The notes under the pieces were generated by a model. That model saw nothing but the letters and a program-made list of their open reading frames with translations, had not been told where the DNA came from and made no database searches. Of a stretch of 64,000 bases of DNA, positions 3-59,230 are shown piece after piece. The first letter of the stretch is position 1. Each line of letters starts with the position of its first letter. The stretch covers positions 7,753 through 71,752 of the forward strand of contig CAYVXE010000002.1 of the NCBI GenBank assembly GCA_964455375.1, written 5' to 3'. The position numbers and the translations under genes were made by a program. The stretch is from an uncultured Calditrichaceae bacterium. GTDB lineage: Bacteria; Zhuqueibacterota; Zhuqueibacteria; Oceanimicrobiales; Oceanimicrobiaceae.

Positions 3-887
3 CTCAACCGTGAAGCGATTAACTCCAAAGTGTTAGCAGCTTTCACGCCAAACTCAGAGTGGGTGTATTTTTCTCAAAACGAAGGTCTTTTTACTAATAA
101 GGTGGTTGCGATTGAAATTGATAATTCGGGACGGGTCTGGATTGGCACAGAAGGTCGCGGCGTAAAAGTGTTGGACTACAATGGCACGCTCAACGATAAA
201 AGCGATGATGATTTCTCCGGCAGTTTGACCCAGGCTGCGGATAATCTGTTTGACAACAAAATAACCGCTTTGGCAGAAGATAGAGATGGAACCATCTGGA
301 TTGGGACGGAACTTGGAATCAATTTTTGGTTTCAAGGGCAGGTAGGTGTACGTTTCGGTTTAATCAATGATTTTGTAAATACCATCGGGGTGGATGCGCG
401 AAACAACAAATGGTTTGGTACAGCTAAAGGAGTGAGTGTCTTAAATAACGATGGTGTCACATGGATGCATTATACCGTTGGCAACAGCCCTGTTGTCAGT
501 GAAGATATTCAATCTTTTGCCTTCAATGAAGAAAATGGTGACGTCTGGATTGGTACCACAAACGGGTTGTCGAAATTATCGACGCCATTCACGGCTCCGA
601 AGGAAAATTTAAGCTTACTTACTGGCTTTCCCAATCCATTTGAAATCAGGGGTGCCGGGGATATTTTCACAATAACGAATTTGTCAGAGAACATATCGGT
701 CAGTATTTTTTCCTCTTCAGGAAAACTCATTCGCTCATTTAAACAGTCAGATATCAGTGGTGCCCAGGTTTTTTGGGATGGAAGAAATTCTGACGGTAAT
801 TTTGTTGCCAGTGGCATATATGTCTATCTTGCATTCTCGGAAAGTAACATTTCAGCCAGCGGAAAAGTAGCGGTTATCCGCCGTTGA
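3..887 (+). CDS. Secreted beta-propeller repeat protein with T9SS C-terminal sorting domain (5' end cut by window edge)
   Basis: The frame is open from base 3 with no upstream stop, so the listed GTG at 30 is probably internal. It carries repeated VWIGT/IWIGT/KWFGT/VWIGT propeller-type repeats. The C-terminal ~85 aa (FPNPF...GIYVY...) resemble Por/T9SS sorting domains also seen at 37553-37854 and 39588-39889. Confidence 0.6.
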   Translation, partial: LNREAINSKVLAAFTPNSEWVYFSQNEGLFTNKVVAIEIDNSGRVWIGTEGRGVKVLDYNGTLNDKSDDDFSGSLTQAADNLFDNKITALAEDRDGTIWIGTELGINFWFQGQVGVRFGLINDFVNTIGVDARNNKWFGTAKGVSVLNNDGVTWMHYTVGNSPVVSEDIQSFAFNEENGDVWIGTTNGLSKLSTPFTAPKENLSLLTGFPNPFEIRGAGDIFTITNLSENISVSIFSSSGKLIRSFKQSDISGAQVFWDGRNSDGNFVASGIYVYLAFSESNISASGKVAVIRR

Positions 888-9589: not shown

Positions 9590-9618
9590 TTGACTATCGT
9601 TTTAAATATTATTATTAT
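9590..9618 (+). promoter_or_regulatory. Candidate sigma70-type promoter of the nuo cluster
   Basis: TTGACT (9590-9595), 17-nt spacer, TATTAT (9613-9618), about 50 nt upstream of the nuoA start. Confidence 0.35.
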
Positions 9619-9670
9619 TATCCGTTGTTGAGGCTCTATAAGTTGTTTCCCACGAAACTAAAGGAATCAG

Positions 9671-45025: not shown

Positions 45026-45037
45026 AATGCCATATTT

Positions 45038-45085
45038 ATGTCGTGGAGCATGAGCTTAATTTCTCAACATAAATGTTGAGCTACA
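45038..45085. repeat. Small palindromic repeat element, copy B
   Basis: atgtcgtggagc... ctcaacat-aa-atgttgag (45063-45080) ctaca. It shares its core with copy A at 31199-31256 and starts 13 nt after the mutL stop. Confidence 0.55.
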
Positions 45086-45093
45086 AATAATTC

Positions 45094-45122
45094 TTGACTT
45101 CTTGAATCTGATTTTGTATAAT
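45094..45122 (+). promoter_or_regulatory. Promoter of the aromatic supraoperon
   Basis: TTGACT (45094-45099), 17-nt spacer, TATAAT (45117-45122). Confidence 0.6.
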
Positions 45123-45152
45123 CTTGTAATCAGTCATAAAAATCAAAAAAAA

Positions 45153-45260
45153 ATGATCAAACGTATTTTTTCCACAATCTTTAATAACAGCAACTGGTAT
45201 TATTGGTATTGGTATTTTACCTGTGTGGGGAAAAATACGTGTTTAGGCAAATTTAAATAG
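45153..45260 (+). CDS. Attenuator leader peptide, 35 aa, MIKRIFSTIFNNSNWYYWYWYFTCVGKNTCLGKFK
   Basis: ATG at 45153 and TAG at 45258-45260. Codons 15-22 are W Y Y W Y W Y F. The ORF lies between the promoter and an intrinsic terminator directly upstream of trpE, and the aromatic codons overlap segment 1 of the alternative RNA structures. Confidence 0.7.
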   Translation: MIKRIFSTIFNNSNWYYWYWYFTCVGKNTCLGKFK

Positions 45261-45312
45261 CTTTATTTAGGAACACGAATTTTGACCCACTATATAAACA
45301 TTATATAGTGGG
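45212..45312 (+). promoter_or_regulatory. Transcription attenuator with mutually exclusive helices 1:2, 2:3 (antiterminator) and 3:4 (terminator)
   Basis: Helix 1:2 pairs 45212-45221 with 45229-45238. Helix 2:3 pairs 45225-45244 with 45271-45290 (17 of 20 positions paired, no bulges). Helix 3:4 pairs 45286-45297 with 45301-45312. Helices 2:3 and 3:4 compete for CCCAC at 45286-45290. Confidence 0.75.
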
Positions 45313-45323
45313 TTTTTTATTTT
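45286..45323 (+). terminator. Attenuator terminator
   Basis: 12-bp stem cccactatataa/ttatatagtggg, a 3-nt loop, then TTTTTTATTTT (45313-45323). Confidence 0.85.
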
Positions 45324-45347
45324 GTGCCGAACCTAAAGCGGGAAACG

Positions 45348-46817
45348 ATGAATTATTCAGAATTTGAAACTCTGGCAAAACAGGGGAATGTGATTCCGGT
45401 TTACCAAACCTATCTGGCGGATCTATTAACGCCGGTATCGGCATTTTTGAGGTTAGCTCAGGCATCAAAAAATGCCTTTCTTTTTGAAAGTGTGGAAGGG
45501 GGAGAAAAAACCGCCCGCTTTTCTTTCCTCGGCTGCGATCCCTTTTGTACCATTCAATTTTCAGAAAATACAATTGAAGAAATGCGACTTGGGAAAAGGG
45601 AACGTTTTAAAAGCGACATCTTCGAACATCTTAAAAAGCTGTTTGGGAATTATCAAATGGTGCGTCCCGAAAATTTACCGAGATTTACCGGCGGCGCTGT
45701 GGGCTATTTCGGCTATGAAACGATTCACCTCATTGAAGATGTTCCGGTTTTGCAGAATGGCTCACAAACATTTCCCGAAGCCGCGTTTATGTTGTTTGAT
45801 ACTATCTTGGCGTTCGACCACCTGAAACATCAAATCTATATCATCAAAAATGTGCGGCTTGATGAGGAATCCGGATCATTGCCTAAATTATTCGAACATG
45901 CACAGGCGACGATTAGCGGCATTAAACAGCGTTTGGACTGTGAATTAAATCGTATAAAAAATGACCGCGCTGTGGAGGATAGCCGGGTTGAGTCAAATTT
46001 CAATGCAGCGGATTTTTGTTTGGCGGTGTCCCGGGCAAAAGAATTTATTCAGGCCGGTGATATTTTTCAGGTTGTTTTGTCGCAGCAGTTCAGGCGAAAA
46101 ATCAGCGTCACCCCTTTTGATATTTATCGCGCCCTGCGAATCATCAATCCATCGCCTTATCTGTATTTCGTAAAAATGGATGATAAATGCATTATTGGCT
46201 CATCGCCGGAGCTATTGGTGCGCGTTGAAAACAGGAAGATTGAAGTCAGACCAATCGCAGGTACTCGTAAACGTGGTCAAACGCCGGCTGAAGATAGTGA
46301 GCTTATGGCCGATTTGGAGCAGGATCCGAAGGAAGTTGCGGAACATACAATGTTGGTGGATTTAGGCCGGAATGATGTTGGGCAGGTGAGTGAGTTCGGT
46401 TCGGTTGAGGTGACGGAGTTTATGCAGGTTGAAAAATATTCGCATGTCATGCATCTGGTTTCCAATGTGCAGGGGAAATTACGTGAAAATTTAACCGCCA
46501 TCGATGCGCTAAAGGCCTGTTTTCCTGCAGGCACGGTTTCCGGAGCACCCAAAATCAGGGCTATGGAAATCATCAGTGAACTGGAACCTGAGAAGCGCGG
46601 CGTTTATGCCGGAGCTCTCGGTTACCTGGATTTTTCCGGAAATTTAGATACCTGCATTGCGATCCGGACGATTTTGACGGAGAAGAAATACGCTTATTTT
46701 CAGGCCGGCGCCGGCATCGTTGCCGACTCTGTTCCGGAAAGTGAGTATCATGAAACTATGCATAAATCCGCTGCACTCCGGGAGGCGATAGATTTCGCTG
46801 AAAGGGGATTGAAATGA
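45348..46817 (+). CDS. trpE: Anthranilate synthase component I
   Basis: Chorismate-binding domain motifs IAGTRKRG, LVDLGRNDVG, VSGAPKIRAMEII and RGVYAGALGY. The ATG at 45348 is preferred to the GTG at 45324, which abuts the terminator T-run. Confidence 0.93.
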   Translation: MNYSEFETLAKQGNVIPVYQTYLADLLTPVSAFLRLAQASKNAFLFESVEGGEKTARFSFLGCDPFCTIQFSENTIEEMRLGKRERFKSDIFEHLKKLFGNYQMVRPENLPRFTGGAVGYFGYETIHLIEDVPVLQNGSQTFPEAAFMLFDTILAFDHLKHQIYIIKNVRLDEESGSLPKLFEHAQATISGIKQRLDCELNRIKNDRAVEDSRVESNFNAADFCLAVSRAKEFIQAGDIFQVVLSQQFRRKISVTPFDIYRALRIINPSPYLYFVKMDDKCIIGSSPELLVRVENRKIEVRPIAGTRKRGQTPAEDSELMADLEQDPKEVAEHTMLVDLGRNDVGQVSEFGSVEVTEFMQVEKYSHVMHLVSNVQGKLRENLTAIDALKACFPAGTVSGAPKIRAMEIISELEPEKRGVYAGALGYLDFSGNLDTCIAIRTILTEKKYAYFQAGAGIVADSVPESEYHETMHKSAALREAIDFAERGLK

Positions 46818-47404
46818 TTCTGGTCGTCGACAACTACGATTCTTTTACGTATAATCTGGTGCAGTATCTGGGTGAATTGGGCGCTAAATTGCTCGTAAAA
46901 CGCAATGACAAAATCTCATTGACGGAGATAAAAGATATGAATCCCGACGGAGTGGTTATTTCGCCGGGGCCGGGTAGACCGGAGAACGCCGGTATTTCTG
47001 TGTCTCTCATCGCCGAGTTCGCCGGTTGTATGCCGATTCTTGGCGTTTGTTTGGGACATCAGGCAATTGGACAGGCATTTGGCGGAAAAATCATCTCTGC
47101 ACCCGTTCTCATGCATGGAAAGACGTCGCGCATTCAGCACAACCAGCAAGGCGTGTTTGCAACGCTTCCCAATCCGTTTGCGGCAACGCGTTACCATTCT
47201 CTGATTGTTGAAAAAAGGAGTCTGCCCGAAGAGCTTATCGTAACTGCGGAAACAGAAGACCGAATCATCATGGGACTGCGACATAAAGTGAAACCCGTCT
47301 TCGGTGTTCAATTTCACCCGGAGTCTATTTTAACAGAGGTGGGTAAGAAATTGCTCGATAACTTTCTAAAAATGTGTACAAAATTTAAAGGAAATGCGTC
47401 ATGA
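46814..47404 (+). CDS. trpG: Anthranilate synthase component II (glutamine amidotransferase)
   Basis: Class-I GATase motifs PILGVCLGHQAIG and GVQFHPES. ATGA overlap with trpE. Confidence 0.93.
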   Translation: MILVVDNYDSFTYNLVQYLGELGAKLLVKRNDKISLTEIKDMNPDGVVISPGPGRPENAGISVSLIAEFAGCMPILGVCLGHQAIGQAFGGKIISAPVLMHGKTSRIQHNQQGVFATLPNPFAATRYHSLIVEKRSLPEELIVTAETEDRIIMGLRHKVKPVFGVQFHPESILTEVGKKLLDNFLKMCTKFKGNAS

Positions 47405-48420
47405 TGCAACATGTAATTCGAACCGTTACCGGCGGCAGGAATTTGAGCCGGGACGAAGCTTTTGAAACGATGCAAATCATCATGGACGGCGGGGCGACGC
47501 CTTCGCAGATTGCCGCTTTTCTCATCGCCGAAAAATGCAAGGGCGAGACCCTTGAGGAAGTGACTGGCTTTGCAAAGGCCATGCGGCAAAAGGCGACGAC
47601 GGTCAAAACGAAACATCGCAATGCCATCGATATGTGCGGCACCGGCGGTGATGGTGCCGGGACCTTCAATATTTCAACGGTGGCGTCGTTTGTGGTAGCC
47701 GGTGGTGGCGTTCCGGTGGCAAAACATGGTAACCGTTCGGTCTCAAGCCGTTGTGGCAGCGCCGACTTGCTGGAAACGCTCGGTGTGAATATCAGTTTGA
47801 GTGCAGAGCAAATTGGCGTCTGCCTGGATGAGTTGGGCATTGCATTTTTGTTTGCACCGGCGCTGCACAAAGCCATGAAGCATGCCGTGGTGCCAAGAAG
47901 GGAAATTGGTGTACGCACGGTTTTCAATTTGTTAGGTCCCATGACGAATCCCGCCGCGGTGACCCGCCAGGTGATGGGTGTTTACCATCCAGATGTAAAA
48001 CGTCTGGTGGCGGAAGTATTTCGAGAGTTAGGCGCCGAACACATTTTTGTGGTGCACAGCGCTGACGGATTGGATGAGGTCTCCATTTATGACGCAACTC
48101 CGGTCATTGAATTAAAAGCGGGCAGGATTTTGGAAAGGAGAATCACTCCGGAGGATTTTGGCCTTGTCCGCAACGCAGCAAACGGCGTTCAGGGTGGGTC
48201 GCCTGAAGAGAACGCACAAATTGTAAAAGATGTCCTCGGTGGGCAGAAAAGTCCTGCCCGCGATTTTGTCATTGCAAACGCCGCCTGCGGTTTTGTTGTC
48301 GGCGGTGCGGCGCAATCGTTAAAGGAAGGCGCGGAATTGGCAGCGGAATCTATCGATTCCAGAAAGGCAAATGAAAAACTGCAAGCGTTAATCGAGATGA
48401 CTCAGGCGATCGTCTCATGA
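47401..48420 (+). CDS. trpD: Anthranilate phosphoribosyltransferase
   Basis: Motifs DMCGTGGDGAGTFNISTV and KHGNRSVSS. ATGA overlap with trpG. Confidence 0.93.
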   Translation: MMQHVIRTVTGGRNLSRDEAFETMQIIMDGGATPSQIAAFLIAEKCKGETLEEVTGFAKAMRQKATTVKTKHRNAIDMCGTGGDGAGTFNISTVASFVVAGGGVPVAKHGNRSVSSRCGSADLLETLGVNISLSAEQIGVCLDELGIAFLFAPALHKAMKHAVVPRREIGVRTVFNLLGPMTNPAAVTRQVMGVYHPDVKRLVAEVFRELGAEHIFVVHSADGLDEVSIYDATPVIELKAGRILERRITPEDFGLVRNAANGVQGGSPEENAQIVKDVLGGQKSPARDFVIANAACGFVVGGAAQSLKEGAELAAESIDSRKANEKLQALIEMTQAIVS

Positions 48421-49211
48421 ATGATATTCTGAAAAATATTCTTCGGGATAAGAAAATGGAAATAGGTGCCAGTCAAGCAAAAGTACCGATTTCAAGATTG
48501 TTTGAAATAGCTGAAGAACAGGTACCTCCGGTTTCGTTGACGGATGCGTTAGACCGTGAGACAGTCGCAGTCGTTGCCGAATTAAAAAAACAATCACCCA
48601 CCGCAGGCGTGATTAAAGAAAATGCAGACATTGGCGGGATCGCTGAAAGTTATGCAGAAAATGGTGCTGCGGCTATTTCCGTACTGACGGATTTTCCCTA
48701 TTTTGGCGGGACTTTGCAGGATTTAGCCCAGGTTCGTCACAGGGTGAATTTACCGCTTCTTCGCAAGGATTTTATTCTCGAACCGTATCAAATTGTCGAA
48801 GCCAGAGCGTTCGGTGCAGACGCCGTTTTGCTCATCGTAGCGGCATTGGGACAGCCTCAATTCGTTGAACTGCTTGCGACCGCGGCAGAGGTTCGCATGC
48901 AGCCGTTGGTGGAAGTGCACACAGAAAAAGAAGCAGACCGGGGGTTATGCGAAAATGTTTCACTCCTCGGGATTAATAATCGAAACCTGAACACATTTGA
49001 AGTGGATTTACGAACCACAGAACGAGTGATGAAAATGATTCCGGAGGAGGTTCAGGTGATTTCAGAGAGCGGCATTAAATCCCCGGAGGATGTTGAAAGA
49101 CTCGCCCAATGGGGCGTTGATGCGGTTCTTGTTGGCGAGACTTTCATGCGGCACCCGGAGCCGGGGACAGCCCTGAAACCGTTTGTTGGAGTACCCAAAT
49201 GTTCAAGGTGA
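48417..49211 (+). CDS. trpC: Indole-3-glycerol phosphate synthase
   Basis: Motifs VAELKKQSPTAG, LRKDFI, and GINNRNL followed by ISESGI. ATGA overlap with trpD. Confidence 0.92.
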   Translation: MNDILKNILRDKKMEIGASQAKVPISRLFEIAEEQVPPVSLTDALDRETVAVVAELKKQSPTAGVIKENADIGGIAESYAENGAAAISVLTDFPYFGGTLQDLAQVRHRVNLPLLRKDFILEPYQIVEARAFGADAVLLIVAALGQPQFVELLATAAEVRMQPLVEVHTEKEADRGLCENVSLLGINNRNLNTFEVDLRTTERVMKMIPEEVQVISESGIKSPEDVERLAQWGVDAVLVGETFMRHPEPGTALKPFVGVPKCSR

Positions 49212-49816
49212 AAGTGTGTGGTATCACGAATGAGGAAGATGCGTTGCTTGCCTGTGAAGCCGGCGCCGGGGCCTTGGGCTTTATTTTTTATGAAAAGAGT
49301 CCCCGTTTTATCGATCCTTTTGCCGCAGAGAAAATTATTTCAAAGCTGCCGGCATCGGTCAAAAAGGTGGGTGTGTTTGTCAATGCGCCGGTGGAAGATA
49401 TAAATACGCGGTTTAAATTTCTCGATTTTGCACAGTTGCACGGTGATGAAACGCCGGAATACTGCCGGCAGGTCACATTACCGGTGATAAAAGTCTTCCG
49501 CGTGCAGGCTTCATTTGATAGTCGTGAAATGCAGTCCTACAACCCGGATGGATTCTTGCTCGACACATACAGCCCGGCACAGCGGGGAGGAACCGGTGAA
49601 AGCTTTGATTGGCAAATTGCACGGGAAGCAAAGAAATATGGGAGAATCATTCTTTCAGGTGGTTTGAATGCGCATAATGTTTTGCAAGCTGTAAACACAA
49701 CGCTCCCGGATGCGGTGGATGTAAATAGCGGGATTGAGGCGGCTCCCGGTAAGAAAGACGTAAAAAAGTTGAAATCATTTTTTAAAGTACTCGAACAGAC
49801 ATACTTGACTAAATAA
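49199..49816 (+). CDS. trpF: Phosphoribosylanthranilate isomerase
   Basis: Motifs KVCGIT, AQLHGDE and LSGGLN. 13-nt overlap with trpC. Confidence 0.9.
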   Translation: MFKVKVCGITNEEDALLACEAGAGALGFIFYEKSPRFIDPFAAEKIISKLPASVKKVGVFVNAPVEDINTRFKFLDFAQLHGDETPEYCRQVTLPVIKVFRVQASFDSREMQSYNPDGFLLDTYSPAQRGGTGESFDWQIAREAKKYGRIILSGGLNAHNVLQAVNTTLPDAVDVNSGIEAAPGKKDVKKLKSFFKVLEQTYLTK

Positions 49817-49846
49817 CGAAATAATCTAATTGGAAGGCATTGCATC

Positions 49847-51061
49847 GTGAAAATGATGGAGAATAAGAGCTTAACAGATAATAGTCTGCCGGATGCGAGC
49901 GGTTACTTTGAGGAATTTGGCGGCAAGTTTATTCCTGAAGTTTTATTGCCGGCGGTGGATGAATTGGAGGATGCGTATGCCGCCGTCAAAAATGATGACG
50001 CATTTCAGTCGGAGTTATTGCGCTATTTGCAGGACTATTCCGGGCGTCCTACGCCGCTGACGTTCTGCCCGCGCCTGACGGAAAAATATGGTGGCGCTAA
50101 GGTTTATCTCAAACGCGAAGATCTGAATCATACCGGGGCGCATAAAATAAACAACTGTTTGGGGCAGATTCTTTTGGCGAAAAGAATGGGGAAAAAGCGC
50201 ATCATTGCGGAGACCGGCGCCGGTCAGCATGGTGTTGCGGTTGCAACGGTGTCTGCAAAATTCGGCTTAAAATGTGTCGTTTACATGGGTGAAGAAGATA
50301 CGCGGCGGCAACAGCTAAATGTTTTTCGGATGGAACTTTTAGGCGCTGACGTCATCCCGGTCAAATCCGGCAGCCGAACGTTGAAAGATGCCATCAACGA
50401 AGCCATTCGCGACTGGGTCACGAATGTTGGCGATACATTTTATTTGATTGGTTCCGTGGTGGGGCCGCACCCGTACCCCATGATGGTCAGGGACTTTCAG
50501 TCGGTGATCGGCCGTGAAACCAGGGAGCAAATGTTGCGGCAAACGACCCACCTACCGGATTATGTGCTTGCCTGTGTTGGCGGCGGCAGCAACGCCATGG
50601 GCATGTTCTATCCGTTTCTGGCTGACCGGTCGGTGAAATTGTTTGGCGTCGAAGCTGCCGGAGAAGGATTAACAACGAATAAACATGCCGCGACCCTCAC
50701 CGCTGGAACGCCCGGTGTTTTGCATGGCGCTTTGACTTACTTACTGCAGGATCAGGATGGTCAGATACAGGAAGCACATTCGATTTCTGCGGGGTTGGAT
50801 TATCCCGCGGTGGGGCCTGAACATAGCTTCCTGAAAAAATCTGGACGGGTACATTATACATCGGTCACGGACGAGGAAGCGCTCGATGCATTTTATCTGC
50901 TGGCGAAAACAGAGGGAATTTTGCCGGCTCTGGAAAGTTCGCATGCCATCGCACAAGCGGTAAAAATGCTGCCTGAAACCGACCCTGATGAACGAATGGT
51001 CATTTGTTTGTCAGGCAGAGGTGATAAGGATGTGGATATCATCAAATCGTTAACTGTGTAA
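49847..51061 (+). CDS. trpB: Tryptophan synthase beta chain
   Basis: [11 protein letters not shown] (PLP lysine), GAGQHG and GGGSNAMG. The start could be the GTG at 49847 (GGAAGG 8 nt upstream) or the ATG at 49853. Confidence 0.95.
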
Positions 51062-51082
51062 CATCTAATTTTGTGAGATAAG

Positions 51083-51886
51083 ATGAATCGATTACAAAAA
51101 AGAATTGCAGAAAAAGTGGCTGCCGCGGAGAAAATGCTTTCTGTTTTTATCGCGGCGGGATTCCCAGAGTTGAATTCAACCCCTGACTATGTGCTGGCCT
51201 TTGAAAAAGCCGGCGCCGATTTTATCGAGATCGGTTTACCGTTTTCTGACCCCATCGCAGACGGACCGGTTATTCAACATGCATCGCAGATTGCCTTAAA
51301 TAACGGGGTAACCTTAGAGAAATGTTTCCATCAAATCCACCTGATTCGAAAGAGCAGCCAGATTCCAATTTTACTCATGGGCTATTTTAATCCAATTTTT
51401 AAATTTGGAGTAAAGAGTTTCTTACAGCAGGCTGAATCCTCTGGTGTCGACGGTTTGATTATCCCTGATTTGCTTCCAGAAGAATTCGCACGGTTTCAAA
51501 ATGAATTTGCAACATCAACGATTGGGGTAAATTTCCTGATTTCTCCCAATACGGGTATGGAGAGAATCAAACATATCGATACGCTGACGCAATCATTTAT
51601 TTATTGCACTTCTGTAACCGGCACGACCGGGGTTCGGGAAAACGTTTCTGCCGATTTGCATCGTTATTTGGTTCGGGTACGTGAGTCGGTTAAGCATCCT
51701 TACTTTGTGGGCTTTGGCATTGCAAATGAAAGGGAGGCGGAGCGAATTTCCAGGGAATGTGACGGAATCATTGTCGGCAGTGCAGTGATTAAGAAGATTG
51801 ACGAAGCACCCACCGGACAAAAGTTGGAAACGGCCTCAAGCTTTGTATCCCAATTAAAGGAGGCAATTGTAAATGGAGATTCATGA
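51083..51886 (+). CDS. trpA: Tryptophan synthase alpha chain
   Basis: IEIGLPFSDPIADGPVIQ and VGFGI motifs. Confidence 0.93.
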   Translation: MNRLQKRIAEKVAAAEKMLSVFIAAGFPELNSTPDYVLAFEKAGADFIEIGLPFSDPIADGPVIQHASQIALNNGVTLEKCFHQIHLIRKSSQIPILLMGYFNPIFKFGVKSFLQQAESSGVDGLIIPDLLPEEFARFQNEFATSTIGVNFLISPNTGMERIKHIDTLTQSFIYCTSVTGTTGVRENVSADLHRYLVRVRESVKHPYFVGFGIANEREAERISRECDGIIVGSAVIKKIDEAPTGQKLETASSFVSQLKEAIVNGDS

Positions 51887-52157
51887 TTGGCGAAAAAAGA
51901 TCGATGCGATCGATGCTGAAATATTATGTCTGCTGAATAAACGGGCGGAGTGTACCATTGCGATTGGGTTTCTGAAGGCAAAACATCACTTGCCTGTTTA
52001 TGTTCCTCAACGGGAAACAGAAATCTTAAACCGTCTGATGTCAGAAAATCGAGGCCCGTTAACGGCAGATGGTGTCAAACGAATCTTTGAACGCATTATT
52101 GATGAATCAAGAAAATTGGAAAAGGACAAAATGTTAAAAAATAACCAAAAGGATTAA
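51873..52157 (+). CDS. Monofunctional AroQ-class chorismate mutase
   Basis: 94 aa. WRKKIDAIDAEILCLLNKRAECTIAIGFLK followed by VYVPQRETEIL, the typical helical CM_2 pattern. 14-nt overlap with trpA. Confidence 0.85.
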   Translation: MEIHDWRKKIDAIDAEILCLLNKRAECTIAIGFLKAKHHLPVYVPQRETEILNRLMSENRGPLTADGVKRIFERIIDESRKLEKDKMLKNNQKD

Positions 52158-52160
52158 AAA

Positions 52161-53174
52161 ATGGTCGTCGTAATGAAAGAAAATGCCACAGAGGAAAATA
52201 TTCAGAAAGTCGTTTCAAAATTGACGGAAATGAATTTTGATGTGCACCGGTCAACGGGCGTCAATCAAACCGTTCTCGGCGCGGTGGGTGACAAACGCGG
52301 GATTGAAGTGCGCAGCTTTGAGTTAATGGAGGATGTACAAAAGGTTGTTCCAATTACTCAGCCGTACAAATTGGCCAGTCGGGCATTCAAACCCGAAGAC
52401 TCTGTCATTAAAATAAAAGATGTAGCCGTTGGTGGAGACACCTTGGTTATGTTTGCCGGTCCGTGCTCCATTGAAAATCGGGAGGCAATTTTACAAACTG
52501 CCGAAATTGTGAAGAAGGCCGGCGCTACGGTTTTGCGCGGAGGGGCATATAAACCGCGCACATCTCCTTACAGTTTCCAGGGATTGGGCGAAGAGGGATT
52601 GAAGTACATGCGCGAAGCTGCAAACCTGCATGGGTTGATCTCTGTTTCTGAAGTCATGGAAAGCAGTCAGATTCCAATTCTTGTGGAATATGTGGATATT
52701 CTTCAGGTTGGCGCCCGAAACATGCAAAATTTTACCTTGTTGCGGGATTTAGGAAAAATCAGAAAGCCGGTTTTATTGAAGCGCGGGATGTCTGCAACCA
52801 TCGAAGAGCTTTTGATGTCTGCTGAGTACATCATGGCCGGCGGAAACTTTCAGGTCATTTTGTGTGAGCGCGGCATTCGTACATTTGAAAAATATACACG
52901 AAACACGTTAGATATTTCTGCGATCCCTGTCGTGAAAAAACTAAGCCACCTGCCCATCATCGCTGACCCCAGCCATGCGACGGGACGGCGGGATAAAGTG
53001 GCGCCCATGGCCAGGGCAGCCATCGCCGCCGGATGTGACGGTCTCATCGTGGAAGTTCATCAAAATCCCGACGAAGCGCTTTCCGACGGCCCGCAGTCGC
53101 TGTATCCGGAACAGTTTAAGAAATTAATGAGCGAACTCAAAATTATTGCCAAAGCCGTTGGAAAACACTGGTAA
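52161..53174 (+). CDS. 3-deoxy-7-phosphoheptulonate (DAHP) synthase, type I-beta with N-terminal ferredoxin-like regulatory domain
   Basis: The ~65 aa N-terminal FL/ACT-like domain (MVVVMKENATEENIQKVVSKL) resembles Thermotoga-type enzymes. Catalytic motifs GPCSIEN, RGGAYKPRTSPYSFQG and ADPSHATG. Confidence 0.9.
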   Translation: MVVVMKENATEENIQKVVSKLTEMNFDVHRSTGVNQTVLGAVGDKRGIEVRSFELMEDVQKVVPITQPYKLASRAFKPEDSVIKIKDVAVGGDTLVMFAGPCSIENREAILQTAEIVKKAGATVLRGGAYKPRTSPYSFQGLGEEGLKYMREAANLHGLISVSEVMESSQIPILVEYVDILQVGARNMQNFTLLRDLGKIRKPVLLKRGMSATIEELLMSAEYIMAGGNFQVILCERGIRTFEKYTRNTLDISAIPVVKKLSHLPIIADPSHATGRRDKVAPMARAAIAAGCDGLIVEVHQNPDEALSDGPQSLYPEQFKKLMSELKIIAKAVGKHW

Positions 53175-53231
53175 AATTACTTGAAAATTACTTCCGGTTT
53201 GGTTATACTTGTCTGAAAGTGAGGATTATGT

Positions 53232-54326
53232 TTGTTTGAAAAAATTACGATTATCGGGCTGGGACTCATTGGCGGTTCGCTAGCTGCGGCATTTAAGCGT
53301 AAAAATATTTCTGCTGAAATCATAGGTGTCGATGAAAACGTCGTTTTAGAGAAGGCATCGGCGGCCGGGTTGATCGCATCCGGGTTTGGTTTGGGGAAGA
53401 TTGAGCAAGCAGTCGGCGGGGCGGATTTGATTTTTTTGGCAACGCCAATTCAATCGGTTTTTGACTTGTTGCCACATGTGGGAAAATACGCAAAAGCCGG
53501 TACGCTCATCTCCGATGTTGGCAGCACAAAACGTTTAATCGTTGCGGAAGCCGCGAAGTGCCTTCCAGCCAACGTTTATTTTCTTGGCGGTCATCCGATG
53601 ACCGGTTCCGAAAAAAAAGGATTAGATGCGGCGGATCCGTTTTTGTTCGAAAATAGTTATTATGTGATTGCGGAATCGCCAGACGTTCCGACGACTCTTC
53701 AGGATGGATTTGTTCGCTTGATTGAGTACATTGGCGCAAAAGTCATTTGTATGCAGGCAGATGTGCACGACGAAGTTGCAGCGGTGGTCAGCCATTTACC
53801 GCAATTACTTGCCGTTGCTCTCATGACGCATGTGGCTTCCCTGAACGATGAAAATTCGATGTATTTGAAGTTGGCTGCGGGCGGCTTTCAAGATATGACC
53901 AGGGTGGCGTCAAGCCCGTATTCCACCTGGGAACATATTCTCAAAACCAATACCGGAAATATTCGACGCGCATTGGATTCATTCGTCGGGACGCTTACGG
54001 ATGTGGGAAATTTGATAGCCGACGATTCACTTGAACAGATATTTGAACGGGCTGCAAGAGACCGCCTGTCAATTCCGAAAGATATGCGCGGATTTATGCA
54101 CCCGCATTTTGATGTTTCTGTGGTGGTTGAAGACAAGCCCGGGATTTTGGCAGAAATTACCGGGATTCTGGCAGGAACGAATCTGAATATAAAGGACATT
54201 GAGATTTTGAAAGTGCGGGAAGGAGATGCGGGAACATTGCGAATGGCATTTGCCAGCAAACAGGAACGGCAAGAAGCTGTACGCGTGTTACGGCAGCGCT
54301 ATTTTCAAGTAACTGAAAGGGACTGA
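53232..54326 (+). CDS. tyrA: Prephenate dehydrogenase with C-terminal ACT domain
   Basis: TTG start preceded by GAGGA. IIGLGLIGGS NAD-binding fold, GGHPMTGSE, and a C-terminal ACT-like VSVVVEDKPGILAEITGIL. Confidence 0.88.
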   Translation: MFEKITIIGLGLIGGSLAAAFKRKNISAEIIGVDENVVLEKASAAGLIASGFGLGKIEQAVGGADLIFLATPIQSVFDLLPHVGKYAKAGTLISDVGSTKRLIVAEAAKCLPANVYFLGGHPMTGSEKKGLDAADPFLFENSYYVIAESPDVPTTLQDGFVRLIEYIGAKVICMQADVHDEVAAVVSHLPQLLAVALMTHVASLNDENSMYLKLAAGGFQDMTRVASSPYSTWEHILKTNTGNIRRALDSFVGTLTDVGNLIADDSLEQIFERAARDRLSIPKDMRGFMHPHFDVSVVVEDKPGILAEITGILAGTNLNIKDIEILKVREGDAGTLRMAFASKQERQEAVRVLRQRYFQVTERD

Positions 54327-54335
54327 ATTTTTTCA

Positions 54336-55616
54336 ATGGATCAAATTATTCAACCAGCCAAAAAACTGTCTGGTATCGTCAGGTTGCCCGGAGATAAGTC
54401 CATTTCTCACCGGGCTTTATTGCTTTCTGGAATCGCCGAAGGTACCTCGAGTCTGGAAAATTTAAATAATGGTGTGGACGTTACAAGCACCATGAACTGT
54501 ATGAAAAAACTCGGCGTCAGATTTTCTGAGGACAAGGGTATCTTGCGGGTTGCCGGTAAAGGCCCGGCATTAGCAGCGCCGTCTGAAACGTTAGATGTTG
54601 GTAATTCCGGCACAACGATTCGGATATTATCCGGTATTTTAGCCGGGCAAAATTTTACGACAACGATCAGTGGGGACGATTCCATCCGGCGGCGCCCCAT
54701 GGGGCGAATCATCGAGCCGTTGACAAAAATGGGTGTCAATATCGAAGCGGTGGAAAATGAATTTGCACCGTTGACCATTCAGGGTGGCCATTTGCAGGCA
54801 GTCCATTATGCTTTACCGATGGCAAGCGCTCAGGTGAAGTCCTGTATTTTAATGGCAGCACTGTTTGCCAGAGGCACAACCGAAATTCGGGAACCGGGCA
54901 TGACCAGAGATCACACGGAAATCATGCTCAAGAGATTTGGCGCACAGATTGAAAAGGAGCGCCTGACGGTTTCGTTGACCGGCCCCGCAAGACTTGAAGC
55001 ACAAAATGTCATCGTCCCCGGGGATTTGTCGGCAGCGGCTTTTTTCCTGGCCGCCGGCTGTCTGGTGAATGGTGCAGAAATATTAATTCCCAATGTGGGG
55101 GTCAACCCCACCCGGAAAGCGTTTATTTCGCTTTTGTGTGACATGGGGGCTGAAATTGATATGCTCAATATTGTGACATCAGGAAATGAGATTAAAGCTG
55201 ATTTTGTCGTCAGGCAGTCTAAGTTAAAAGGGATTACTATTTCCGGTGCAATTATTCCGCAAATTATCGATGAACTGCCAATCATTGCGGTCATGGCCAC
55301 CCAGGCGGAGGGCGTCACAGAAGTCAGTAACGCCCGGGAATTGCGTGTGAAAGAGTCCGATCGTATCAAATCCATCGTTTCCAATTTGACAAAAATGGGT
55401 GCCGCCGTGGAAGAACGCGAGGATGGATTCATTATTGAAGGCCCGGTTAAACTCAATGCTGCAGCTCTTGACAGCTTTCATGATCACCGGATTGCCATGG
55501 CCTTTGCCGTCGCTGCTTTAGTGGCGGATTCCGAAAGTACCATTCAACATGCTGAATGCGTCGATATCAGTTTCCCTGCATTCTATGATGAACTGGAAAA
55601 CATAACCGAGCATTGA
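54336..55616 (+). CDS. aroA: 3-phosphoshikimate 1-carboxyvinyltransferase (EPSP synthase)
   Basis: Motifs LPGDKSISHR, LDVGNSGTTIR, RVKESDR and HDHRIAMAF. Confidence 0.95.
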   Translation: MDQIIQPAKKLSGIVRLPGDKSISHRALLLSGIAEGTSSLENLNNGVDVTSTMNCMKKLGVRFSEDKGILRVAGKGPALAAPSETLDVGNSGTTIRILSGILAGQNFTTTISGDDSIRRRPMGRIIEPLTKMGVNIEAVENEFAPLTIQGGHLQAVHYALPMASAQVKSCILMAALFARGTTEIREPGMTRDHTEIMLKRFGAQIEKERLTVSLTGPARLEAQNVIVPGDLSAAAFFLAAGCLVNGAEILIPNVGVNPTRKAFISLLCDMGAEIDMLNIVTSGNEIKADFVVRQSKLKGITISGAIIPQIIDELPIIAVMATQAEGVTEVSNARELRVKESDRIKSIVSNLTKMGAAVEEREDGFIIEGPVKLNAAALDSFHDHRIAMAFAVAALVADSESTIQHAECVDISFPAFYDELENITEH

Positions 55617-56495
55617 ATGATGATTAAACTCGGCATCGTAGGACATCCGCTGGCTCATTCATTGTCCCCGGATTTGCATGCGTATTTACTAAACAGGTTG
55701 CACAAAAATGGTGAGTACCTACGGTATGAATGTGATGAATGGGCACTGCCGGATTTAATGCGGCAATTCGTACAAAGTGACCTGACCGGATTTAATGTTA
55801 CGATTCCCTACAAAAAAACGATCATGCCGTTTTTAAATAAGATGACCCCTGCTGCAGAATTCATCGGTGCGGTGAATACAGTGCATCTGAAAACAGGTAA
55901 GTTTTTGGGTTACAATACGGACTGTCTCGGATTTAAACAGGCATTAGAAAGACGGAATGTAACGGTAAAAAGTAAAACAGCAGTGGTCTTTGGTGCGGGC
56001 GGCGCGGCGCGTGCCGTATGTTTTCAATTGCTGGAGTCCGGTGTTTCTGCACTTCGAATTTTTAACCGTACGTTACCTTCGGCTGAGAAAATAGCCAGGG
56101 ATCTTCAAGCCAGGTTTTCTTCCTGCAAAATTGAATTTCAGGACTTGGATTCGGCGAAAACAGCACAGCAAATGCTGGAAGCTGATCTATTTGTGAATAC
56201 CACGTCTTTGGGAATGTGGCCTCATGTCGATTCGACGCCGTTCGTGTTTAAATCTGATTTATCGAACAAAGTCGTGGTGGATGTCGTTTACAATCCGTTA
56301 CGAACGAAGTTTCTGCAATTGGCGGAAGACTTACATGCTGAAACGGTGGACGGTCTGGATATGTTTGTTTTTCAGGGCGTCGAAGCGTTGAAAATCTGGT
56401 TGAACATCGAAGACAGCATTGACTTTAATTATCTAGAGCTTAGAAATATATTAGAGGGAAAAATTAAAATCGTATGGGACAGCTTAGATATTTAA
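55617..56495 (+). CDS. aroE: Shikimate dehydrogenase
   Basis: Motifs GHPLAHSLSP, NVTIPYK, GYNTD and GAGGAARA. It starts immediately after the aroA stop. Confidence 0.92.
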   Translation: MMIKLGIVGHPLAHSLSPDLHAYLLNRLHKNGEYLRYECDEWALPDLMRQFVQSDLTGFNVTIPYKKTIMPFLNKMTPAAEFIGAVNTVHLKTGKFLGYNTDCLGFKQALERRNVTVKSKTAVVFGAGGAARAVCFQLLESGVSALRIFNRTLPSAEKIARDLQARFSSCKIEFQDLDSAKTAQQMLEADLFVNTTSLGMWPHVDSTPFVFKSDLSNKVVVDVVYNPLRTKFLQLAEDLHAETVDGLDMFVFQGVEALKIWLNIEDSIDFNYLELRNILEGKIKIVWDSLDI

Positions 56496-57673
56496 CCGCG
56501 GGTGAATCGCACGGACAGGGGTTGGTGGGAATCATCGAAGGAATTCCTGCCGGCCTGGAAATTCATGAAGATGATATTTTCCATCAGTTGCAGCGGCGGC
56601 AGTTAGGGTACGGTCGCGGCGGCCGGATGAAAATCGAAACAGATCGTGCACGAATTCTCTCCGGCGTGCGGTTTGGCAAAACCCTTGGCAGTCCAATCGC
56701 CATGTTCATTGAAAATAAGGATTGGAAAAACTGGCAGACAAAAATGTCGGTGGAAGAAATCGGGGAAGCGGTGAAAAAGGTTACGGTTCCGCGGCCTGGC
56801 CACGCCGATCTGGCCGGAAGTATCAAATACGGTCAGGACGATATCAGAAATATTCTTGAACGTGCCAGCGCCAGGGAAACAGCGATGCGTGTGGCTTTGG
56901 CGGCCATTGCCCGAAAGTTCTTAGCTGAGTTTGGGATACATATTTTAAGCCATGTAACACAAATTTATCATAAAAAAAGTGCTATTTCATTTCTCAATTA
57001 TGGAAATGAAAAATTTAAGCTGCCATGTGAGATATCTGAGGTCAATGCTTTTGCAGATAAATCCCCTGTCCGCTGTCTTGATACAGGGGTTGAAGCCGAA
57101 ATGATTCAGTCCATCGAATTTGCCAAAAAACAGGGCGACACGGTTGGCGGAATTTTTGAAGTGTGTGCTGTGAATGTTCCCGTCGGGCTTGGCAGTCACA
57201 TTCAGTGGGATCGAAAATTAGACGCCCGAATTGGTGCAGCGATGATGAGCATTCCGGCCATGAAAGGGGTAGAAATCGGTTTGGGATTTTCTGCGGCAGC
57301 AAAGTTTGGCTCAGAGGTCCACGACCCGATTCATTTTGATGAAAGCAGACAGGCCTATTCGCGTCCGAGCAACCACGCCGGCGGCCTCGAAGGAGGCATC
57401 ACCAACGGCATGCCGCTTGTGGTCCGCGTGGCCATGAAGCCCATTTCAACATTGATGAAGCCACTGGATTCCGTGGACATGCAGACAAAAGAGAACGTAC
57501 AGGCGCATATCGAGCGTAGTGACTATTGCGCCGTACCCGCCGCATCTGTGATCGGGGAAGCGATGCTCAGCCTGGTTCTGGCGGATGCATGTCTGGAAAA
57601 GTTCGGCGGCGACGCCATTCAGGAAATACTGCAGTCATTTCATTCCTGGCAGCAGAATGCCTCTCAATCATAA
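56474..57673 (+). CDS. aroC: Chorismate synthase
   Basis: Motifs LTAGESHG, GRGGRMKIE, RPGHADL and ERSDYCAVPAA. 22-nt overlap with aroE. Confidence 0.95.
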   Translation: MGQLRYLTAGESHGQGLVGIIEGIPAGLEIHEDDIFHQLQRRQLGYGRGGRMKIETDRARILSGVRFGKTLGSPIAMFIENKDWKNWQTKMSVEEIGEAVKKVTVPRPGHADLAGSIKYGQDDIRNILERASARETAMRVALAAIARKFLAEFGIHILSHVTQIYHKKSAISFLNYGNEKFKLPCEISEVNAFADKSPVRCLDTGVEAEMIQSIEFAKKQGDTVGGIFEVCAVNVPVGLGSHIQWDRKLDARIGAAMMSIPAMKGVEIGLGFSAAAKFGSEVHDPIHFDESRQAYSRPSNHAGGLEGGITNGMPLVVRVAMKPISTLMKPLDSVDMQTKENVQAHIERSDYCAVPAASVIGEAMLSLVLADACLEKFGGDAIQEILQSFHSWQQNASQS

Positions 57674-58190
57674 AAATTTGTTTTTAACCGGATTTATGGG
57701 TTCCGGTAAAACGACGGTGGGCCGGATTTTGGCAACGAAATTGAAGCGGCCGTTTTTTGATGCGGATAGCCTCATAGAAGCATCTGGGGGGAAATCGATT
57801 GCGGAAATTTTTGCCGAACAGGGTGAAACAAGCTTCCGCAACTTGGAGTCCGACATCATTGAGAAAGTGTCCGAAGAACAATCTGCCGTCATTGCTTTGG
57901 GTGGTGGTGCTATCATGCGAGCAAAAAATGTTGCGGTGATCAGGCATAATGGAATTCTAATCTACCTGAACGTTCCTTTTCATCTCCTGTTCTCAAGAAT
58001 AACCACTGAAGAGGGCAGACCGTTAGTTGCAAAACTGGAGAAATCTCAGCAGTGGAAAAAATTGAAACAACTGTTTGACTCAAGAGTAACAACCTATGAA
58101 CAGGCGGATGTTATCATTGAATGTGGCACTGAAAACACACCTGAAGAAATTGTATCTAAAATTATTTATTCCTTGGAAGAGGTGTCATGA
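57657..58190 (+). CDS. aroK: Shikimate kinase
   Basis: The internal ATG at 57657 gives MPLNHKNLFLTGFMGSGKTTVG (Walker A near the N-terminus). The longer ORF-track start at 57585 lies inside aroC. Confidence 0.9.
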   Translation: MPLNHKNLFLTGFMGSGKTTVGRILATKLKRPFFDADSLIEASGGKSIAEIFAEQGETSFRNLESDIIEKVSEEQSAVIALGGGAIMRAKNVAVIRHNGILIYLNVPFHLLFSRITTEEGRPLVAKLEKSQQWKKLKQLFDSRVTTYEQADVIIECGTENTPEEIVSKIIYSLEEVS

Positions 58191-59047
58191 AAAATATACT
58201 GGTTATTAATGGTCCCAACCTGAATCTTTTAGGGGAACGTGAACCGGAAATTTACGGTTCGGAAACACTTGCGGAGTTGACCGAAGCCCTTGCTGTTTAT
58301 TGTAAGAAGATGAACATGGAAATGAGGAGTTTTCAATCAAATCATGAAGGTGAAATCATCGATGTGATGCATGCAAACCGGAAATGGGCAAACGGTATTA
58401 TTTTGAATCCCGGGGCGCTAACGCACTACAGTTACGCTCTGCGTGATGCCGTTGCTTCTGTAAACCTCCCGACCATTGAAGTGCATTTATCGGATATCAT
58501 GAATAGGGAAGCATTCAGAAAGCAGTCTGTCGTTGAAGACGTCTGTGCAGAAAGGTTCATCGGTCTGGGCCGGGACGGTTATTTTCGAGCCGTGGAATTT
58601 TTGGCTGGTTTGGGTGTTCTTAAAAAGCTGGAGGAATTCATAGCATCCAGTCAGGATAAAGATGCTGTCTTAAAAAAGGCTGTGAAACTTTTGAAAGATT
58701 TATTTCCAAAATACACCTGGGTTGGCATATATTTGAAAGAGGGCGAGGAACTGGTGTTGCATAATTTTATCGGGAAACCCACACCCCATGTGAGGATTCC
58801 TGTGGGGAGCGGAATTTGTGGCGCCGCAGCATCTGAGAAGCAGTCAATTATTGTGGACGATGTCAATGCCGATTCTCGCTATTTAGCCTGCAGTGTTGAA
58901 ACGCGTTCAGAAATTGTCGTCCCGATTATGAGTGCAGTAGACGTGTTTGGTGAAATCGATATTGACAGTGACGAGAATGCCATTTTTCATGATGGTGATC
59001 GCAAAATGTTGGAAGAATGCTCACGGCTACTTTTAGACGTATTTTGA
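58187..59047 (+). CDS. aroQ: Type II 3-dehydroquinate dehydratase fused to a C-terminal GAF (free-Met-sulfoxide-reductase-like) domain
   Basis: Residues 1-~142 carry INGPNLNLLGEREPEIYG, NPGALTHYS and EVHLSDI. Residues ~150-286 carry WVGIYL...GICGAAA...VDDV...LACSVETRSEIVVPI...GEIDIDS, matching the GAF_2/fRMsr pattern. Confidence 0.85.
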   Translation: MKNILVINGPNLNLLGEREPEIYGSETLAELTEALAVYCKKMNMEMRSFQSNHEGEIIDVMHANRKWANGIILNPGALTHYSYALRDAVASVNLPTIEVHLSDIMNREAFRKQSVVEDVCAERFIGLGRDGYFRAVEFLAGLGVLKKLEEFIASSQDKDAVLKKAVKLLKDLFPKYTWVGIYLKEGEELVLHNFIGKPTPHVRIPVGSGICGAAASEKQSIIVDDVNADSRYLACSVETRSEIVVPIMSAVDVFGEIDIDSDENAIFHDGDRKMLEECSRLLLDVF

Positions 59048-59230
59048 TTTCTGCCAAAGTAACAGGTTTTGCTTCATTCTGGCAAAAAACGAGTTTGTGA
59101 AAAATTAGAATGTTAAATTAAATAGAGATAAGTCTTTTAAATTCAGATGTCTTTTCAAATTTGGAATAGTTGTTGCTTATTTGAATTGAACGGAATTAAT
59201 AAGACGTTTTGACATATATAAAAGGTAACT

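Follow-up and report, generated by a model that had tools for sequence, protein, structure and literature searches.

A probable ribosome-mediated attenuator with a mixed tryptophan, tyrosine and phenylalanine codon run precedes a trp–tyrA–aro gene cluster in a KSB1/Calditrichota-like lineage

In the trp attenuator of Escherichia coli (trpL), a promoter-proximal leader open reading frame (ORF) carries codons for the end product of the operon, and its transcript can form three mutually exclusive helices, 1:2, 2:3 and 3:4, ending in a terminator with a U-tract before trpE. The stop codon lets a non-stalled ribosome cover segment 2, and the antiterminator must win kinetically. Other E. coli leaders are multivalent, with threonine and isoleucine codons in the thr leader and leucine, valine and isoleucine codons in that of ilvGMEDA, and ilvBN belongs with them; starvation for any of the amino acids relieves termination. 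We know of no characterised three-way aromatic leader. Here we describe a probable ribosome-mediated attenuator upstream of trpE in a 64,000-nucleotide stretch (the window) of contig CAYVXE010000002.1, from an uncultured Calditrichaceae bacterium (assembly GCA_964455375.1). It shares the trpL features just listed, but has no sequence or covariance-model similarity to E. coli trpL, and its family carries 8-13 mixed tryptophan (Trp, W), tyrosine (Tyr, Y) and phenylalanine (Phe, F) codons where E. coli has 2 Trp codons. Furthermore, segment 1 lies upstream of the regulatory codons, which fall in the 1:2 loop, whereas in E. coli they lie within segment 1, and the unit downstream comprises trp, chorismate mutase, DAHP synthase, tyrA and shikimate genes in a KSB1/Calditrichota-like host. 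Like the thr and ilv leaders, it places codons for several operon-dependent amino acids in one peptide; it differs from them in amino-acid family and in sequence.

Mixed aromatic codons attenuating the common-pathway DAHP synthase gene are known from Corynebacterium glutamicum, where the Phe-Tyr-Phe leader aroR attenuates aroF and only Phe limitation mattered (Neshat et al., 2014, as summarised in PMC11802643). The aroR leader has three regulatory codons, none of them Trp, and serves the aroF operon only, with trp under a separate trpL (PMC11802643); here, by contrast, one leader in which Trp and Tyr dominate precedes trp, tyrA and aro genes together. Attenuators have also been predicted before tyrA supraoperons, for example aroA'-aroB'-pheA-aroF-tyrA-[trp operon] of Desulfovibrio vulgaris (Merino database; Song et al., 2005, Table 7; PMC1173090). 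These resemble the present element in having a terminator and antiterminator before tyrA and trp supraoperons, and differ in gene order and taxa and in that the available part of the article gives structure only, describing neither leader peptide nor codon content (PMC1173090). Rodionov et al. (2004) contains no text on an aromatic leader in Desulfovibrio. A preliminary description of the locus, made from its letters alone, had presented a leader integrating Trp, Tyr and Phe charging as without described counterpart. This was too strong, because multivalent leaders, aroR and supraoperon attenuators precede it, although we found no description of a Trp plus Tyr (with or without Phe) leader, or of the present family, in the searchable literature, which misses most subscription journals. 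It is well supported that the element is a conserved, uncatalogued and apparently multivalent aromatic attenuator, a variant of the trpL/thr/ilv logic that overturns no principle. Its features in the window are the following.

45094..45122, plus strand: sigma-70-type promoter, TTGACT (45094-45099), 17 nucleotides (nt), TATAAT (45117-45122); direct reading and promoter scan.
ATG 45153 to TAG 45258-45260, plus strand: leader ORF of 35 codons plus TAG, product MIKRIFSTIFNNSNWYYWYWYFTCVGKNTCLGKFK; direct reading.
45161..45177, plus strand: segment 1, ACGUAUUUUUUCCACAA, spanning leader codons 3-8 and forming the 5' side of the conserved 1:2 anti-antiterminator; RNAfold, RNAduplex, RNAalifold, double changes and repeat finder.
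45195..45218, plus strand: regulatory run W15-Y-Y-W-Y-W-Y-F22 (TGG TAT TAT TGG TAT TGG TAT TTT), codons 15-22; direct reading.
45211..45221, plus strand: small apical hairpin GGUA-UUU-UACC from the last Trp/Tyr codons, within the 1:2 loop; RNAfold minimum-energy structure.
45224..45244, plus strand: segment 2, UGUGGGGAAAAAUACGUGUUU, partner of either segment 1 or segment 3; pairing, folding and repeat finder.
45271..45290, plus strand: segment 3, with CCCAC (45286-45290) at its 3' end serving as G/C-rich foot of the terminator 5' arm; pairing with segment 2.
45284..45323, plus strand: intrinsic terminator, a 14-base-pair (bp) stem at 45284-45314 with loop ACA, then the U-tract TTTTTTATTTT; terminator scan and compensatory changes.

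The evidence that supports a trpL-type attenuator with a mixed aromatic run before a trp, aro and tyrA supraoperon, as first proposed, is comparative and comes from ten further loci. TrpE of the window has hundreds of metagenome relatives at 55-72% identity, the named ones being 'candidate division KSB1' and 'Calditrichaeota/Calditrichia' metagenome-assembled genomes (MAGs), and our comparison DNA consisted of the loci of twelve TrpE relatives, one metagenome scan and one genome scan. The window and ten trpE upstream regions (loci L012, L013, L096, L097, L098, L100, L101, L102, L016 and L105) form a family. The ten lie on metagenome contigs or in KSB1/Calditrichota-like MAGs, and their TrpE shares 55-72% identity with that of the window. 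Like the window, they have a promoter (here TTGACA-16..18-TATATT), an ATG ORF of 24-35 codons in which W, Y and F codons form a rich run, a terminator of the CCCAC...GUGGG type followed by a U-tract, and an overlapping antiterminator. Beyond this family, the genome-contig scan with TrpE, which relies on exact peptide words, returned distant relatives only (at most 51% identity), of which the trp-only locus L001 was used as outgroup, and the metagenome scan with a TrpE alignment, which picked up universal TrpE motifs, returned at least 80 loci, 46-55% identical, with L016 the sole family member among the matches listed.

The covariation counts were made on an unguided MAFFT alignment of the 11 family leaders (A2), on which RNAalifold independently finds 1:2 (of the 45161-45177 type) and 3:4. 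For helix 2:3, pairing is found in 80.3% of the alignment cells, a share that drops to 38-46% once the partner is slid by 1-3 columns; both sides have changed in 7 pairs, and none of 500 shuffles scores as high in covariation. The corresponding values for 1:2 plus 3:4 are 82.5% against 44-52%, 11 double-change pairs and again 0 of 500, and the conserved 1:2 helix has 6 pairs with double changes. Furthermore, the bases just 5' of GUGGG in segment 2 vary in step with the inner part of the terminator stem (AGUAGUGGG / CCCACUAC / GUAGUGGG and similar), so that segment 2 mimics segment 4, a hallmark of attenuators; the GUGGGAAGG box in segment 2 is kept in 11 of 11 members. Taken sequence by sequence, the 2:3 duplexes have energies of -14 to -28 kcal/mol (z -2.4 to -5.8). 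Helix 2:3 can indeed compete with 3:4, being at least as stable in all 11 members and sequestering 5-10 nt of the terminator 5' arm. A family covariance model built from the 11 leaders and run over 892 kilobases (kb) of collected sequence has a single match in the window (45161-45320, 96 bits) and, elsewhere, L106 at 33 bits and weak matches in L057, L021 and L103. A further match at L009 14230-14369 (26 bits) was set aside as spurious, being the 3' end of an ORF of 734 amino acids together with its terminator. Searching a representative-protein library with the leader peptide gave 3 spurious matches to long repetitive proteins; the protein collections searched evidently do not include the leader ORFs among their called genes. 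One family member shows an insertion: in L100 (6209-7143), leader and terminator (6209-6368) are intact, and some 780 nt with a PDDEXK_3-family gene (6715-6996) have been inserted before trpE.

In the window itself, the conserved 1:2 helix pairs 45161-45177 with 45224-45240 (UUCCAC against GUGGGAA; arms ACGUAUUUUUUCCACA at 45161-45176 and UGUGGGGAAAAAUACGU at 45224-45240), leaves the aromatic run and the apical hairpin in its loop, and has an energy of -18.3 kcal/mol (RNAduplex). This replaces the 1:2 helix of the preliminary description, 45212-45221 with 45229-45238, in which 9 of 10 positions do pair but which was not picked by RNAfold or RNAalifold and is not a conserved pairing. The other two helices hold as first drawn. 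Helix 2:3 (45225-45244 with 45271-45290) pairs at 17 of 20 positions, with compensatory changes across the family and an energy of -22.1 kcal/mol for the region alone or -24.6 kcal/mol by RNAduplex; the 3:4 core (45286-45297 with 45301-45312) pairs at 12 of 12 positions and is extended to 14 bp by the terminator scan, in which the sequence directly after the stem 45284-45314 is TTTTATTTTG. The idea that CCCAC is the only strong part of the terminator is borne out as well: the stem is worth -17.1 kcal/mol, and without the CCCAC/GUGGG foot the leftover A/U stem is worth -0.6 kcal/mol. A repeat finder independently recovers the three helices first reported together with the longer upstream 1:2 alternative, and the leader fold (-49 kcal/mol, against -34 +/- 3.9 for shuffled sequence; z = -3.8) beats all 200 dinucleotide shuffles.

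Both the promoter and the ORF had been placed correctly. The promoter matches the consensus at 11 of 12 positions and is the top-scoring promoter-like site within 44000-60000, and TTGACA/T-16..18-TAnnnT stands at the equivalent place in 11 of 13 related leaders, whose ATG follows the end of the -10 box by 24-39 nt (30 nt in the window). All 13 of the 13 related leaders have an ATG-started ORF that spans the run in the aromatic frame, and they keep ATG, frame and stop placement despite varying ORF length; the remaining two frames lack any ATG in 11 and 12 of the 13. Synonymous codons vary across the leaders (TAT 38/TAC 9, TTT 21/TTC 5). An ATG ORF in the aromatic frame combined with synonymous variation is the pattern expected from selection on translated codons, and speaks against a purely RNA-level motif. 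Upstream of this promoter, ending 13 nt before the -35 box, lies a perfect 8-bp palindrome, CTCAACAT-AA-ATGTTGAG (45063-45080), which could be an operator or a mutL 3' hairpin; nothing like it is seen upstream of the promoters in L012, L097 and L101.

The aromatic run is the window's only run of at least five aromatic codons that contains Trp, and the chance expectation for runs of at least 8 aromatic codons in the six frames of the window is about 0.0009. The sole other run of at least five aromatic codons on the plus strand is YYYYY at 9607-9621 (frame 1). Small ORF and run recur in the ten further loci, where the leader peptides read MTDRRFSTTFSNAYWYWYFYFTIVGK..., MNVNVSTKYYGFWHWHYYASSGKD..., MLNILSTAYFWRFWYWYYCANSGKD..., MKAIHSTSAYWFWYWYYYASSGMD..., MKSTVSINKRNKSCIYYWAWYWYCAPEVGG..., MKILSAKYYWFYWYWYRSTKSGKG, MKHLPANYFWRNWYWYYYTSSGKD..., MRFSLPTHLFWSFGGFWYWYYYARSGKG..., MKMQHTSTTRFYFSYWYWRQCSHGG... 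and MNMIFSVSYNFYWSFIWYYNGSGK..., with runs of 8-13 W/Y/F-rich codons that keep a WYWY core (YWYWYFYF, YYGFWHWHYY, YFWRFWYWYY, YWFWYWYYY, YYWAWYWY, YYWFYWYWY, YFWRNWYWYYY, FWSFGGFWYWYYY, FYFSYWYW and YNFYWSFIWYY). In the peptide alignment the least variable columns are those of Trp (W18 and W20, at least 90%), aligned Tyr positions swap with Phe among family leaders, and outside the run the peptide is poorly conserved save for residues dictated by the RNA segments. On this pattern the conserved sensors would be Trp and Tyr, with Phe variable.

We modelled stalling by folding the RNA 3' of a 28-nt ribosome footprint for successive A-site codons. With the A site at codons 9-21, the transcript that still lacks segment 4 has full 2:3 as its minimum-energy structure (-19 to -26 kcal/mol); segment 2 stays free during stalls with the A site at codons 15-21, and a stall at F22 or later covers GUGGG, so that no antiterminator is possible. 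The productive sensor positions are thus W15 to Y21 plus the upstream codons F6 and F10, and not F22. The suggestion that all three amino acids are sensed through the run may therefore hold for Trp and Tyr, which are conserved at productive positions, but not for F22, which lies too near segment 2. Among the relatives, 13-40 nt separate the aromatic codons from the GUGG core downstream, with Phe mostly at the upstream, productive end. A ribosome that has reached the stop codon occupies 45243-45270, the stretch separating segments 2 and 3, and clips the last two bases of segment 2.

These elements can be assembled into a mechanism. Transcription would start some 7 nt past TATAAT, and segment 1 would pair with segment 2 (45224-45240) once both have been transcribed, until a ribosome translating the 35-codon leader melts 1:2. 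Scarcity of charged tRNA-Trp or tRNA-Tyr would stall the A site at codons 15-21, and scarcity of charged tRNA-Phe would do likewise at F6 and F10; the ribosome, held between segments 1 and 2, would keep GUGGG available, allowing segment 2 to pair with segment 3 and hide CCCAC, the sole strong part of the terminator stem, and polymerase would continue into 15 genes. With all aromatic tRNAs charged, the ribosome would pass over segment 2 to the TAG at 45258, letting the 14-bp terminator form and transcription stop after about 190 nt; in the absence of translation 1:2 would persist and the terminator would form too. We infer that the leader is translated, that termination and read-through take place, which amino acids are limiting, and that 2:3 wins kinetically. 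On the whole, the element is probably a ribosome-mediated, trpL-type attenuator of a conserved KSB1/Calditrichota-like family, controlling read-through from the sigma-70 promoter into trpE and onward. That Tyr is sensed as well as Trp seems moderately likely, and that Phe is sensed is less so.

What the attenuator may control, and how its codons match, is seen from two further features of the window.

45348..59047, plus strand: 15 genes, trpE-G-D-C-F-B-A, chorismate mutase, DAHP synthase (aroF), tyrA, aroA, aroE, aroC, aroK and aroQ(-GAF); NCBIfam and Pfam.
53181..53209, plus strand: candidate promoter inside the cluster, TTGAAA-17-TATACT, within the 57 nt between aroF and tyrA; promoter scan, 10 of 12 match.

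The trpE ATG is at 45348, the chorismate mutase is of the CM_2 type, and the cluster is flanked by mutL upstream and lon downstream. Genes for 3-dehydroquinate synthase (aroB), prephenate dehydratase (pheA) and an aromatic aminotransferase are not among the 15; with no pheA in the cluster, Phe synthesis depends on the operon only via the common pathway and chorismate mutase. The gene content of the 15-gene, roughly 13.7-kb operon originally proposed stands, but its extent as a single operon is uncertain, given the promoter-like site between aroF and tyrA. TTGAAT/TTGACA ... TATTAT/CATTAT motifs lie in the same gap in L012 (17908-17975), L097 (17806-17915) and L105 (18009-18095), and no such promoter-like motif was seen in the short aroF-tyrA gaps of L100 and L101.

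The order trpEGDCFBA-chorismate mutase-aroF-tyrA-aroA-aroE-aroC... is found in nine loci (the window, L012, L013, L096, L097, L100, L101, L102 and L105). In L098/L099 (8381-19291), trpEGDCFBA and chorismate mutase are followed by a HAD hydrolase gene and tyrA, without aroF or aroA-Q, tyrosyl-tRNA synthetase lies directly upstream of the leader, and the L098 run, IYYWAWYWY, holds no Phe codon. The operons of L103, L106 and L001 are trp-only. All ten leaders before tyrA-containing operons have 4-5 Tyr and 2-3 Trp codons, with Phe also in 9 of the 10, and those of the trp-only operons are dominated by Trp: WQSWQWWYSY in L103 (4 Trp, 2 Tyr), FWRFWWW in L106 (4 Trp, no Tyr in the run) and FWW in L001. 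In a neighbour-joining TrpE tree, L105, with its supraoperon and Tyr-rich leader, groups with L103, L106 and L104, outside the main supraoperon clade. This distribution fits a picture in which leader codons may track operon content, with Trp codons matching the trp genes, Tyr codons matching tyrA and a few Phe codons matching the shared pathway. The fuller proposal is that starvation for Trp or Tyr (or for Phe, via upstream codons) would each independently derepress one transcript spanning the Trp and Tyr branches, chorismate mutase and the greater part of the shikimate pathway, and that leader codons have been retuned in evolution with the gain or loss of tyrA and aro genes; we put its prospects of being right or wrong at about even. 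In L104 (9580-10001), a close relative of the trp-only group, no leader ORF can be recognised before trpE, where there is only a weak terminator-like hairpin (CCCGCCGGATGGTGGG-TTTGTTTTT); its contig ends just past trpE.

Several points weigh against this account of the locus. In equilibrium folding the terminator remains the favoured structure of the full-length leader, also when the aromatic run is masked to mimic a bound ribosome, so that the antiterminator must win kinetically, as in E. coli; we do not count this as disproof of function, because attenuation is decided kinetically, before segment 4 exists. The overlap of 2:3 with the terminator arm is 5 nt in the window, shorter than the 6-10 nt of the relatives, and no clear Shine-Dalgarno sequence precedes the leader start (AAAAAUCAAAAAAAAAUG). 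A stalled ribosome would not cover segment 1, which lies 5' of its footprint, and we have to assume that 1:2 is then blocked sterically or by a queued second ribosome. The comparison of Tyr count with operon type sets 10 loci against 3 and probably reflects one or two independent transitions, and the putative promoter before tyrA may uncouple tyrA and the aro genes from the attenuator. RNA-level constraint from the small conserved hairpin contributes to the conservation of the W-Y run; equivalents of the form (C/U)UGGUA...U(A/G)CCA(G/A) occur in relatives, as judged by eye. Finally, Tyr supply was without effect on aroR despite its Tyr codon (PMC11802643), and Tyr codons need not be sensed.

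The last two of these points lead to the rival that survives best, in which Trp alone is sensed and the Tyr and Phe codons are passengers, kept by RNA constraint (UGGUAU repeats, the hairpin CUGGUA/UACCAG) or by drift among UNN codons and never rate-limiting. Consistent with it are the near-invariance of W18 and W20, the engagement of the last W-Y codons in the small hairpin, the unsensed Tyr codon of aroR (PMC11802643), and the standing of Trp as the scarcest amino acid, with the trp genes first in the operon. Yet every supraoperon leader has 4-5 Tyr codons against 0-2 in the three trp-only leaders of neighbouring lineages; the Tyr positions vary between TAT and TAC and swap with Phe, so that their nucleotides are not fixed; and the majority of Tyr codons are not part of the apical hairpin but fall where stalling would be productive. 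Sensing of Trp alone therefore strikes us as unlikely.

A second possibility is that the switch is real but driven by a riboswitch ligand, a TRAP-like protein or uncharged tRNA (T-box), with the ORF incidental. The lack of an obvious Shine-Dalgarno sequence before the window's leader ATG would suit it, as would a weak, sub-threshold match (45240-45324; 27 bits, E = 0.57) to the trpB motif RF04312, a riboswitch candidate of Firmicutes and Fusobacteria (Narunsky et al., 2024; PMC11109978). The trpB motif RNA resembles the present leader in combining a hairpin in the 5' untranslated region with an intrinsic terminator, sometimes upstream of trp genes (PMC11109978), but the match was rejected: it is far below the gathering score of 59, essentially only the terminator aligns, and the family is confined to Firmicutes and Fusobacteria. 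No Rfam family reaches gathering score in the window or in 6 relatives, and no Rfam leader family appears within 44000-46500 even at E up to 10; T-box likewise has no match at E up to 10 in the leader and none at gathering score in the window or the 6 relatives. A TRAP-type leader needs 9-11 (G/U)AG triplets at 2-3 nt spacing, and 45123-45347 holds 4 GAG/TAG with a longest chain of 1. Beyond the three helices no conserved unpaired pocket is visible, and ATG, frame and stop placement are kept in 13 of 13 leaders though ORF length varies. A switch that ignores translation is thus very unlikely.

More improbable still is a TnaC-like arrest, in which an aromatic-rich nascent peptide stalls the ribosome in response to free amino acid and not to starvation. 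The peptide is Trp/Tyr-rich, and some arrest peptides reportedly need Trp residues and free Trp (PMC8429421), but the polarity would be wrong for a biosynthetic operon, where excess amino acid would induce synthesis. The sequence outside the run is poorly conserved except for RNA-dictated residues, no rut/Rho-type architecture is evident, and the layout is that of a classical four-segment attenuator. Although a leader region of 29% G+C readily yields hairpins, T-runs and promoter-like hexamers, the idea that an ordinary terminator or hairpin in A/T-rich intergenic DNA coincides with a chance ORF is barely credible and effectively refuted by conservation, given about 0.0009 chance runs per window, a fold z of -3.8, recurrence of the arrangement with covariation in 10 divergent loci, and a terminator that stands downstream of the promoter and upstream of trpE and hence is not the mutL end.

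A ribosome-mediated attenuator at this locus would extend the best-understood bacterial RNA regulatory mechanism to an uncultured KSB1/Calditrichota-like lineage, and defines a conserved cis-regulatory family that Rfam models miss. It also offers a natural comparison between related attenuators before trp-only operons, which are Trp-rich, and before trp, tyrA and aro operons, which are Trp- and Tyr-rich; if confirmed, this would show leader codon content co-evolving with operon content, and one switch reporting three end products of a branched pathway. Should the multivalent reading be true, the family would provide the first demonstrated case of a leader integrating Trp, Tyr and Phe, and a natural example of reprogrammable attenuator codons. 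In practical terms, it could provide an annotation signature for KSB1/Calditrichota-like MAGs and a compact aromatic amino-acid sensor of about 190 nt for synthetic biology.

Two minor observations concern the far end of the cluster and more distant trpE loci. The last gene (58187-59047) encodes a fusion, with type II 3-dehydroquinate dehydratase at residues 3-139 and a GAF domain at residues 159-281 (Pfam E = 3e-9); a GAF domain on a shikimate-pathway enzyme suggests possible allosteric control. Many unrelated metagenomic lineages have short ORFs with Trp runs in the 0-500 nt before trpE (L021, L057, L067, L073, L076, L093, L095, L001, L060 and L062), examples being YFGWWWF, AWWWWY, SWWWT, NWWWC, FWWWH, GWWWR, CWW, FWW, YWWRW and GWWLW, and leader-peptide control of trp genes therefore seems far more widespread than curated families indicate.

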